DNA from: an uncultured Chloroflexia bacterium
Lineage (GTDB): Bacteria > Chloroflexota > Dehalococcoidia > Dehalococcoidales > RBG-16-60-22
NCBI GenBank assembly: GCA_963739395.1
Contig: CAVUAE010000001.1
Span: 1,386,930-1,450,929 of the forward strand
DNA: 64,000 nt
Direction of reading: 5' to 3'
Shown: positions 24,732 to 47,354 of the stretch, piece by piece
How the letters are laid out: each line of letters begins with the position of its first letter
How positions within the stretch are numbered: position 1 is the first letter of the stretch
Notes under the pieces: model-generated
Databases searched by the model: none
Told to the model about the DNA's origin: nothing
What the model saw: the letters and a program-made list of their open reading frames with translations, nothing else
Translations under genes and position numbers: made by a program

Positions 24732-26562
<1,831 letters not shown>

Positions 26563-26594
26563 TAAATATCTCCACTCATGATAAGTTTAAATAT

Positions 26595-26940
26595 CCGCTC
26601 ATGGTGAGCCTGTCGAACCATAGCCGCAAGGAATGTGTGGTGAGTTTCTGGGTTTATATTCTAAAGTGTTCCGATGGGAGTTACTACACCGGCCATACTG
26701 ATGACCTTGAAACACGTATTGCACAACACCAACAACACACGATTAAGGGTTATACATCCACACGGTTGCCAGTAAAATTGGTATTTTGCGATGAATTCCC
26801 AACTCGTGATAATGCTTTTGAGAGAGAAAGACAGATAAAAGGCTGGACGCGCCGGAAAAAAGAGGCATTAATTAAAGGAGATTGGGACAAATTGGTAGAA
26901 TATTCTAGAAGTCATCCTTCGACAAGCTCAGGATGAGCGG
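26595..26940 (+). mobile_element. GIY-YIG gene bracketed by inverted hairpin repeats (candidate autonomous unit)
   Basis: Left CCGCTCATGGTGAGCCTGTCGAACCAT (26595-26621) and right CATCCTTCGACAAGCTCAGGATGAGCGG (26913-26940) are inverted copies with compensatory stem changes. Confidence 0.6.
26640..26936 (+). CDS. Stand-alone GIY-YIG nuclease (UPF0213-like)
   Basis: WVYILKCSDGSYYTGHT..L..R..QH, YT..RLPV.LV, A..RERQIKGW.R.KKEALI. GTG start with AAGGAA RBS. Confidence 0.92.
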   Translation: MSFWVYILKCSDGSYYTGHTDDLETRIAQHQQHTIKGYTSTRLPVKLVFCDEFPTRDNAFERERQIKGWTRRKKEALIKGDWDKLVEYSRSHPSTSSG

Positions 26941-26950
26941 TGTTTTTTAG

Positions 26951-27475
26951 TTAAGCCTTCTTCATTCTTAAATATTTCAGTGCCTTCTTGGTAATTTCCT
27001 TGACCATGGCGTCTTTGCCGTCCATATAAAGCTGCCGGTCGTTATTGAGTTTCTCCGCCAGTTCCCACTTATGCTTACTTAATCTTTCCCGATCTTTTTT
27101 ATGGGTTTTCATGTAGTCGCGGAAAGCAGTTTCCTTTTTCAGTTCAAAGCTATGTTTCGAGCAAACATATAGGTGGTGAAGAGGTAGAATTGATTCATCG
27201 GTTAATCTGAAGACCTCTCTGTCTTTGATACCTTGGCCACCTCGATAGTAATAGCCGCGTCCTTCCAGTAAAAGTTTCATTTCTTCCCAGCGTTCTGGCT
27301 CGATGACGATAATGATATCTATTATTGGTTTAGCTATCATGCCTGGGATGGATGTGCTGCCAACGTGCTCAATGCGGATGGACGCTTTCGCTACCTTTTC
27401 GCCGAGGAATGTTTTTATCTCCTCGAACCACTTGGGCCATTGCGGATTATATTTTTCTACCAGCGTTACGGGCAT
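26951..27475 (-). CDS. GrpB-family nucleotidyltransferase-fold protein
   Basis: IEHVGSTSIPG..AKPIIDI, HHLYV, FRDY, Y..GK. Confidence 0.9.
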   Translation of the reverse strand: MPVTLVEKYNPQWPKWFEEIKTFLGEKVAKASIRIEHVGSTSIPGMIAKPIIDIIIVIEPERWEEMKLLLEGRGYYYRGGQGIKDREVFRLTDESILPLHHLYVCSKHSFELKKETAFRDYMKTHKKDRERLSKHKWELAEKLNNDRQLYMDGKDAMVKEITKKALKYLRMKKA

Positions 27476-27500: not shown

Positions 27501-27528
27501 AAAGCCCCGAGGTATTCGGGGCTTTTTT
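27501..27528. terminator. Bidirectional-type terminator hairpin
   Basis: AAAGCCCCGA-GGTAT-TCGGGGCTTTTTT. Confidence 0.7.
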
Positions 27529-27634: not shown

Positions 27635-27862
27635 TTACATTATTTCTAGTCTTACTCTGGTTTGGGCTTTAGCGGCTTTTACCCTAAGCAAAGTGCGCAT
27701 TGCCTGGGCAATCTGGCCTTGCTTACCGATGATTCTGCCTTTGTCTTCATCAGCCACGCGTAGTTTTAGCGTGATACCCTCTTCGTTAGTCTCCTCGTCG
27801 ACATTCACTGCGTCCGGGTTGTTTACGATGCTTTTGGCGATGTACGTAACTAGGTCTTTCAT
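27635..27862 (-). CDS. khpA: KH-domain RNA-binding protein
   Basis: DKGRIIGKQG GxxG loop; follows rpsP. Confidence 0.9.
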   Translation of the reverse strand: MKDLVTYIAKSIVNNPDAVNVDEETNEEGITLKLRVADEDKGRIIGKQGQIAQAMRTLLRVKAAKAQTRVRLEIM

Positions 27863-28704: not shown

Positions 28705-28737
28705 CTTATCCCGAGTGAATGAAGTGAGTCGAGGGAT
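28705..28737 (-). repeat. Family-E hairpin
   Basis: Minus strand reads ATCCCTCGACTCACTTCATTCACTCGGGATAAG. Confidence 0.7.
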
Positions 28738-47190: not shown

Positions 47191-47354
47191 AAGTTTTCTT
47201 GATTTATGGGTAAACCCCTCGACTCGCTGCGTTCGCTCGGGGTAAATCCCTCGACTAAATAAGTTTTCTTGATTTATAGGTAAAACCCTCGACTCGTTAA
47301 AATTTCTTGAAATATGGGTAAACCCCTCGACTCGCTACGCTCGCTCGGGGCAAG
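47191..47354. repeat. Three ~36-bp degenerate direct repeats interleaved with family-E hairpins
   Basis: AAGTTTTCTTGATTTATGGGTAAACCCCTCGACTCG-like units at 47191, 47261 and 47299; CCCCTCGACTCGCT..CGCTCGGGG hairpins. Confidence 0.8.

Follow-up and report, generated by a model that had tools for sequence, protein, structure and literature searches.

The 64,000-nt stretch of DNA analysed here (the window) is part of the 1.79-Mb, two-contig genome of a Dehalococcoidales bacterium (G000). Between atpC, encoding the epsilon subunit of ATP synthase, and grpB it carries a gene for a 98-aa GIY-YIG nuclease, closely bracketed by two inverted copies of a short hairpin (Table 1). The hairpin-gene-hairpin cassette is an insertion, because atpC adjoins grpB without it in three genomes of the same genus and in one metagenome contig. 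In the three genomes (G002, G012 and G006) the end of grpB is found within a few tens of bases after atpC, with no nuclease gene and no hairpin between them. In the metagenome contig, which is from run X2, position 26565 is linked to 26982 by 35 other letters, and the atpC side differs from the window at 3 positions in 122 nt. Such empty sites had been suggested as a check by an earlier reading of the window made without database searches (hereafter the sequence-only reading). Of 40 other relatives searched, none matched the GIY-YIG part of the query next to where it matched atpC. Moreover, in many contigs of runs X1, X3 and X4, 26621-26624 is followed by 26912-26916 after 5-22 other letters. 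These contigs are gene-less doublets, in which a left-type unit is joined to a right-type unit with the inner ends of the cassette.

Table 1. Coordinates of the cassette, its neighbours and related features. Positions are those of the window; those prefixed C1 are from elsewhere in the same genome.
Feature	Position	Strand	Basis or detail
atpC (ATP synthase epsilon), left neighbour of the insertion	26143-26562	+	Pfam ATP-synt_DE_N, E 2.5e-30
Possible decayed partial copy, outer half of left unit (weak)	26568-26585		14/18 identical to 26591-26608
Left hairpin unit	26595-26625	-	5′ stem, loop TCGACAGGCTC (26606-26616), 3′ stem ACCAT, then GAGCGG
AAGGAA, Shine-Dalgarno-like, 6 nt before GTG	26628-26633	+	Read from the sequence
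GIY-YIG nuclease gene, 98 aa	26640-26936	+	Pfam PF01541, E 1.6e-19
Right hairpin unit	26910-26940	+	Stem TCATCCT/AGGATGA, loop TCGACAAGCTC (26919-26929), tail GCGG
T-run behind right unit	26941-26949	+	With GCTCAGGATGAGC scores terminator-like (consensus scan only)
grpB, right neighbour of the insertion	26951-27475	-	Pfam GrpB, E 1.2e-42
Solo TCGAC..RCTC hairpin, 20-nt loop (loop coordinates)	28713-28732	-	Pattern search
Two TCGAC..RCTC hairpins, 20-nt loops (loops 47219-47238 and 47327-47346)	47219-47346	+	Pattern search
cp1, small GIY-YIG gene	C1:152355-152642		TCGAC-TTC-GCTC-type units; groups with E. coli YhbQ
cp3, small GIY-YIG gene	C1:587022-587357		NTS-like hairpin (ATTCCGG..CCGGAATCCAG); Ssn clade
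cp4, small GIY-YIG gene	C1:1183953-1184342		TGTCATTCTGGAG.. ends; Ssn clade

The two flanking units have the same loop, TCGACARGCTC, differing at a single A/G position. This core occurs twice in the window, once on each strand, whereas its chance expectation is 0.04 and none of 100 shuffles contained two or more copies. A repeat search recovers the surrounding inverted arms (26582-26617 and 26918-26953) as 36 nt with 75% complementarity. The inner stems, ATGGT/ACCAT on the left and ATCCT/AGGAT on the right, are related by a compensatory swap of GG..CC to CC..GG around the same loop, as the sequence-only reading had described. It had also stated that the right unit supplies the stop codon of the nuclease, and indeed the TGA at 26934-26936 is part of the 3′ stem of that unit (AGGATGA). 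Its third, decayed copy fared less well: the 14/18 match of 26568-26585 to the left unit is there, but it covers only the outer part and contains no loop core and no fold, and we consider a third copy doubtful.

The encoded protein matches Pfam family PF01541 with 70.4 bits (curated cut-off 22.6), which is its sole Pfam match, and it has no match in NCBIfam, PADLOC or PHROGs. The GTG at 26640 is the likely start codon; its position coincides with the N-terminus MSFWVYIL of the homologues. The alternative ATG at 26601 sits within the left hairpin and would prepend the hairpin-encoded MVSLSNHSRKECV to the nuclease. The catalytic set of GIY-YIG enzymes, with residue roles established for I-TevI and UvrC, consists of a Tyr, a Tyr-x-Gly motif, an Arg and a Glu, and is present here as Y6, Y16, G18, R26 and E63. 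Together with H30, each of these retained residues is the majority residue in at least 96% of 256 aligned family rows, and judged from this alignment the catalytic residues are intact. By sequence, the closest solved structures are PDB 1zg2 (UPF0213 protein BH0048, E 9.9e-16) and 1ywl (EF2693, E 1.1e-11). Relatives are numerous: a word-indexed protein search returned 2,289 at E ≤ 1e-5, and an exhaustive search of 50%-identity clusters returned 11,260, 2,234 and 13 clusters at E ≤ 1e-3, 1e-10 and 1e-30, respectively.

The association of gene and hairpin extends far beyond this genome. We examined the best 80 (52-69% protein identity) of 264 homologous loci confirmed in species-representative genomes, using a generalised unit (5-bp stem, TCGA, 3-26 nt, CTC) in the expected orientation, minus on the left and plus on the right. 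A unit was present on the left at 68 loci, on the right at 69, on both sides at 59 and on at least one side at 78, so that the flanking of homologues, which the sequence-only reading had named as a check, is borne out. In control windows displaced by ~700 bp the figures were 2/57 on the left, 2/57 on the right and 0/57 on both sides. With the strict 11-nt core, 43 loci had a left unit, 40 a right unit and 36 both. The 80 loci span at least six phyla by NCBI names (Chloroflexota, Pseudomonadota, Nitrospirota, Myxococcota, Planctomycetota, Acidobacteriota and others), and by record names the 11-nt loop itself stands beside the gene in the first five of these. The hairpin also enters the coding sequence. 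In 99 of the 120 nearest proteins the C-terminus is translated hairpin, ending ..PSTSSG in 91, ..LRQAQ in 6 and ..FDKLR in 2. Therefore, with 91 C-termini in one frame, the position of the hairpin relative to the ORF is conserved.

Loop variants were found among the 80 loci: 42 have the 11-nt loop, 18 have TCGACTTCGCTC (mostly Alphaproteobacteria), 10 have long loops with an inner hairpin, 4 have TCGATACCTC, 4 have other loops and 2 have none. On the protein tree the loop type changes 14 times for 5 states; host relatedness confounds this figure, which has no shuffle control, and it is not used as evidence of co-phylogeny.

An alignment of 88 units from the window locus and the 80 homologous loci, with both window units in register, gives a consensus of a stem of up to 9 bp, an 11-nt loop and a GG tail, with no CGTC tag. 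Pairing occurs in 76.7% of cells compared with 59.1% in shuffles, and cells in which both partners have changed number 147 compared with 58, a count reached in none of 500 shuffles. When partners are slid out of register, pairing falls to 27-48%. Stem pair 4-26, on which the unit search did not select, forms in 72 of 86 units. Stems vary between units around a conserved loop, and the same is seen within the genome of origin, where ATGGT, ATCCT, ACCCT, TCCC, CCCC and TTGGC with their complements enclose a constant loop.

That the hairpins form a dispersed family, as the sequence-only reading held, is clear at both scales. There are five TCGAC..RCTC hairpins in the window, the two flanks and three with 20-nt loops, and 20 window shuffles gave none or one. 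Genome-wide we counted 26 strict units (core with at most one mismatch and at least 4 of 5 Watson-Crick stem pairs) compared with 0, 0, 0, 0 and 1 in five Markov shuffles. Exact cores number 25, and 20 of these are flanked by at least 4 of 5 Watson-Crick pairs. The units are mainly intergenic: 18 of the 26 lie outside ORFs of at least 120 aa, though such ORFs cover 88.7% of the genome. The predicted copies without the gene were likewise found, as solo units and as (-,+) doublets. One doublet lies in this genome at C1:1322704-1322749, and doublets of this genome, too, have the inner ends of the cassette. The strand of the units on C1 bears no significant relation to GC skew, the core being off the lagging-strand template in 16 of 24 units. 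Elsewhere, four tandem copies of the ATGGT-stem unit with a period of 29 nt are found at C1:1124098-1124195. At C1:427322, 1230603, 1283823 and 1312990 there are compound repeats in which the loop core sits inside a longer, TGTCAT-tagged palindrome (..GGGGTCAGGATGACA); they connect this family of hairpins with the TGTC-tagged type flanking cp4.

The sequence-only reading recognised no characterised system in this arrangement. Here it has been overtaken, since Chenal et al. (2025, Nat Commun) describe SsnA, a 94-aa single-domain GIY-YIG protein that binds the NTS hairpin as single-stranded DNA (ssDNA) and cuts beside it, and that is inactive on double-stranded DNA and RNA (PMC11893778). Their main text places NTS/SRM repeats on either side of ssnA genes and describes the family (CDD cd10448) as widespread, and the authors themselves remark on the layout of NTS-ssnA-NTS, which resembles an insertion sequence (IS), and on its parallel to REP/RAYT (PMC11893778). 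Thus, on this account, the kind of system seen here has already been described. The likeness is close: a single-domain GIY-YIG protein of ~95 aa, a gene flanked on both sides by a hairpin dispersed in the genome, an IS-like architecture and an occurrence in many phyla. The hairpins themselves are built differently, however, as NTS is reported to have a conserved stem and a variable 3-nt loop, whereas here the 11-nt loop is conserved and the stem varies. The main text of Chenal et al. does not mention cd10456, UPF0213, YhbQ or COG2827, although its supplements may list clades beyond cd10448 (PMC11893778).

To place the nuclease relative to Ssn we used as anchors three small GIY-YIG genes that have exact NTS copies as flanks (L114, L116 and L117). 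These came from an exact-pattern search of 401 genomes of the order containing Herbaspirillum, 66 of which contain NTS; two of the 66 are flagged as unpublished and enter no result other than this count. The window protein is 37-39% identical to the three anchors, and cp3 and cp4 are 42-66% identical to them. In a quick maximum-likelihood tree (71 rows, 110 columns, with a UvrC root on a very long branch) the anchors, 30 homologues, cp3 and cp4 form one clade with a support of 100 in the Shimodaira-Hasegawa-like approximate likelihood-ratio test (SH-aLRT) and a stem branch of 1.55. This clade excludes the window protein and all 32 rows of its cluster, which appear as an unresolved grade. The repeats are partitioned in the same way. 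No SRM pattern occurs within 300 bp of the window gene or within 500 bp at any of the 80 homologous loci, compared with 2-3 copies at each of the three anchor loci; conversely, the TCGA..CTC unit is lacking at 6 of 7 Ssn-clade loci. Each nuclease clade has its own hairpin. Because the gene falls outside the Ssn clade and its hairpin differs, the locus is, as far as tree and repeats can tell, a sister case of the Ssn systems, widespread, with another protein clade and another hairpin logic. We found no description in the literature of the TCGACARGCTC-loop hairpin or of its pairing with a GIY-YIG nuclease, in a search whose coverage of subscription journals was thin. The papers listed for the 11-mers of the loop looked like primer sequences or unrelated studies, and none of those listed for YhbQ dealt with its biochemistry.

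All four small GIY-YIG genes of the genome, cp1, cp3 and cp4 included, are bracketed by their own, mutually different inverted repeats, which fits a coexistence of several nuclease-hairpin pairs in one small genome. The cp1 cassette lies between tRNA-Ser(GGA) and tRNA-Ser(CGA) (L001:1316-2012), and a tandem array of about five hairpin-like repeats is found upstream of it. In the order sampled for NTS (G481, G403, G360 and G352 among others), exact NTS reaches 205 copies in one genome. G352 has 44 copies, and its PF01541 matches are a YhbQ-like small GIY-YIG gene and one of UvrC size only, with no Ssn-type gene.

We propose, with a probability of roughly 0.6, that the locus is a compact hairpin-gene-hairpin cassette encoding a hairpin-specific ssDNA nuclease, and that it is inherited and spread as a unit. 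The cassette would extend from about 26590 to 26945 (~350 bp) between atpC and grpB. By analogy with the biochemically characterised Ssn nucleases, its 98-aa protein is most likely an endonuclease for single-stranded DNA, specific for both structure and sequence. The site it recognises may be the flanking hairpin, that is, the conserved 11-nt loop, a freely covarying stem of up to 9 bp and the GG tail. We infer that the protein would recognise the folded unit in ssDNA by its loop and stem geometry and would nick nearby, as Ssn does on NTS. Such nicking would help the cassette, and perhaps the hairpins, to persist or spread, with gene and hairpins being passed on and spread as one. Solo hairpins and gene-less doublets may then be derivatives of the cassette, or substrates acted on in trans. 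A bolder form of this proposal, which we hold only tentatively, makes the nuclease the mobilising enzyme both for itself and for gene-less hairpins and doublets across many phyla, so that the ~350-bp unit would be an autonomous mobile element. As part of it, the hairpins with a TCGAC..GCTC loop and the small GIY-YIG proteins outside Ssn would possibly be a second, independent partnership of nuclease and repeat. We know of no transposition chemistry in GIY-YIG enzymes.

Several observations weigh against the proposed nuclease cassette; those on target-site duplication, recent copies, synteny and hairpin-rich genomes lacking the gene also count against its bolder form. There is no target-site duplication at the 30 loci having both 11-nt units (shared k-mer mean of 2.67 compared with 2.08 for shuffled pairs). 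No clean recent transposition was seen either: among the 80 loci, cassettes at least 85% identical always shared their flanks, as syntenic or duplicated regions, and the sphingomonad loci look syntenic. Thermodynamically, both window units fold only weakly (-3.4 to -6.5 kcal/mol, z -0.2 to -2.3), and their minimum free energy favours a small alternative 5-bp hairpin, GCTCA-NNN-TGAGC. As a structure for the family this alternative was rejected, because most units elsewhere have GAACGG, which breaks its pairing, and because the long stem shows covariation between its columns 2 and 28 (T-A 19, C-G 9). In the covariation count the inner five stem pairs were preselected by the unit search, and only about half the units form each of the outer pairs 1-3 (37-42 of 86). 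Moreover, the hairpins clearly persist without the nuclease gene. In a class sample of 201 genomes, for which we counted cores and searched for homologues at E ≤ 1e-20, 30 genomes have at least 40 exact cores, with a maximum of 176. A nuclease homologue is present in only 8 of these 30 and in 10 of the 171 others (G000 included), though the genomes concerned are mostly metagenome-assembled genomes of 93-97% completeness, and repeats assemble badly. A check of five of the 22 with the Pfam model found no gene of the window protein's cluster with these hairpins. G152 and G077 have a UvrC-size GIY-YIG match only, whilst the small GIY-YIG genes of G134, G166 and G121 belong to other clades and have either different flanks or none. 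The gene in G166 (L106) lies between two copies of one tRNA-like segment (GGGCCATTAGCTCAGCAGGTTAGAGCG), which ARAGORN calls as tRNA-Ile on one side, and has no hairpin flanks.

These gene-less genomes, together with the doublets that have the cassette's inner ends and the lack of target-site duplication, would suit a homing scenario. Here the hairpins would be older, spread by other means or kept by the host, and the GIY-YIG gene would be a selfish passenger aimed at doublets, which it might nick so as to be copied in by repair, and would not itself spread the hairpins. The empty atpC-grpB sites of the three same-genus genomes, however, carry no hairpin or doublet into which a gene could have homed, and thus the whole unit arrived together at this site. 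The fixed reading phase of the hairpin at the 3′ end of the gene also fits one inherited unit better, and we judge homing unlikely. The synteny of the sphingomonad loci could instead reflect a domesticated host function, in which an immobile cassette encodes a hairpin-specific ssDNA nuclease with a modulating role in transformation, recombination or repair at hairpin-marked DNA, much as has been suggested for the SsnA of Neisseria. It would agree with the report that SsnA limits the integration of NTS-bearing transforming DNA (PMC11893778) and with the annotation of a relative, E. coli YhbQ, as a 'DNA damage response nuclease'. Against it, the gene is patchily distributed (18 of the 201 class genomes), the site is polymorphic within the genus and loci in different phyla retain 52-69% protein identity, so that horizontal spread fits better than a conserved host role; nor does any PADLOC model match. 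Domestication therefore seems to us more unlikely still than homing.

The last alternative moves the hairpins to the RNA level, as terminators, mRNA stabilisers or autoregulatory sites that are not substrates of the nuclease. The right unit with its T-run does score terminator-like, the units are mostly intergenic, and covariation cannot tell RNA from ssDNA. Yet the 11-nt loop is conserved across phyla whilst the stems are free to vary, and terminators need no such loop. The T-run is absent from most aligned units, units are found in either orientation and also as doublets and arrays, and no Rfam family matches 26400-27100. We regard an RNA-level role as highly improbable and retain the cassette with a hairpin-specific ssDNA nuclease as our preferred interpretation.

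This cassette can be compared with other known systems. The sequence-only reading likened the layout to RAYT genes flanked by REPs, and the resemblance stands: as in REPtrons, an enzyme gene is bracketed by inverted copies of the genome's dispersed short hairpin, solo copies and inverted doublets are mostly intergenic, and there is no target-site duplication. The enzyme, however, is a GIY-YIG protein and not an HUH/Y1 transposase, there is no GTAG tag, and the conserved part of the hairpin is the loop rather than the stem. CGTC-tagged REPs, which include the dRS3 repeats of Neisseria, are described as having 8-9-bp stems, 4-5-nt loops, a CGTC/TGTC/CCTC tag and a CCA tail, and are reported to lack a dedicated transposase (Di Nocera, De Gregorio and Rocco 2013; PMC3733652). 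They are likewise short palindromic repeats with stems of 8-9 bp, but differ from the 88-unit consensus in loop length, tail and tag. Among proteins, UPF0213/YhbQ contains the best solved-structure relatives by sequence, of the same size and with a single domain; in the tree, however, YhbQ groups with cp1 and L115 (SH-aLRT 95) and not with the window protein, whose cluster forms only a grade there. With the TnpA (Y1) enzymes of IS200/IS605 there is a mechanistic analogy only, in that imperfect end hairpins are read as ssDNA and no target duplication is made; the enzyme fold is unrelated and the element described here is far smaller.

Among the features of bacterial genomes that still lack an explanation, short hairpin repeats rank with the most abundant, and enzyme partners are known for some only: RAYT for GTAG REPs and, since 2025, Ssn for NTS/SRM. 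Here another hairpin, itself very widespread, is linked to another clade of tiny GIY-YIG nucleases. If the protein does cut the hairpin as ssDNA, the Ssn principle would hold for a second family as well, one reading the loop rather than the stem, and new site-specific ssDNA nucleases could be had as tools. Moreover, the question of who spreads the repeats would become testable with a 98-residue protein and a 31-nt oligonucleotide. Were the nuclease also to mobilise the hairpins, the cassette would represent a new class of prokaryotic mobile DNA, among the smallest conceivable, with an enzyme fold not known for transposition.

Lastly, two further features of the window deserve mention. The paired 20-nt-loop hairpins belong to a short array at 47200-47350 of ~55-nt repeats, each ending in a TCGAC..GCTC hairpin of this type. 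The adjoining sequence, from about 47355, appears tRNA-gene-like by eye, and the loop type resembles that of the units flanking cp1. Nearer the cassette, a strong bidirectional terminator-like hairpin of 10-11 pairs, with T-runs on both strands, is found at 27501-27525, downstream of a khpA-like gene (27635-27862) and just upstream of the 5′ end of grpB (27475).

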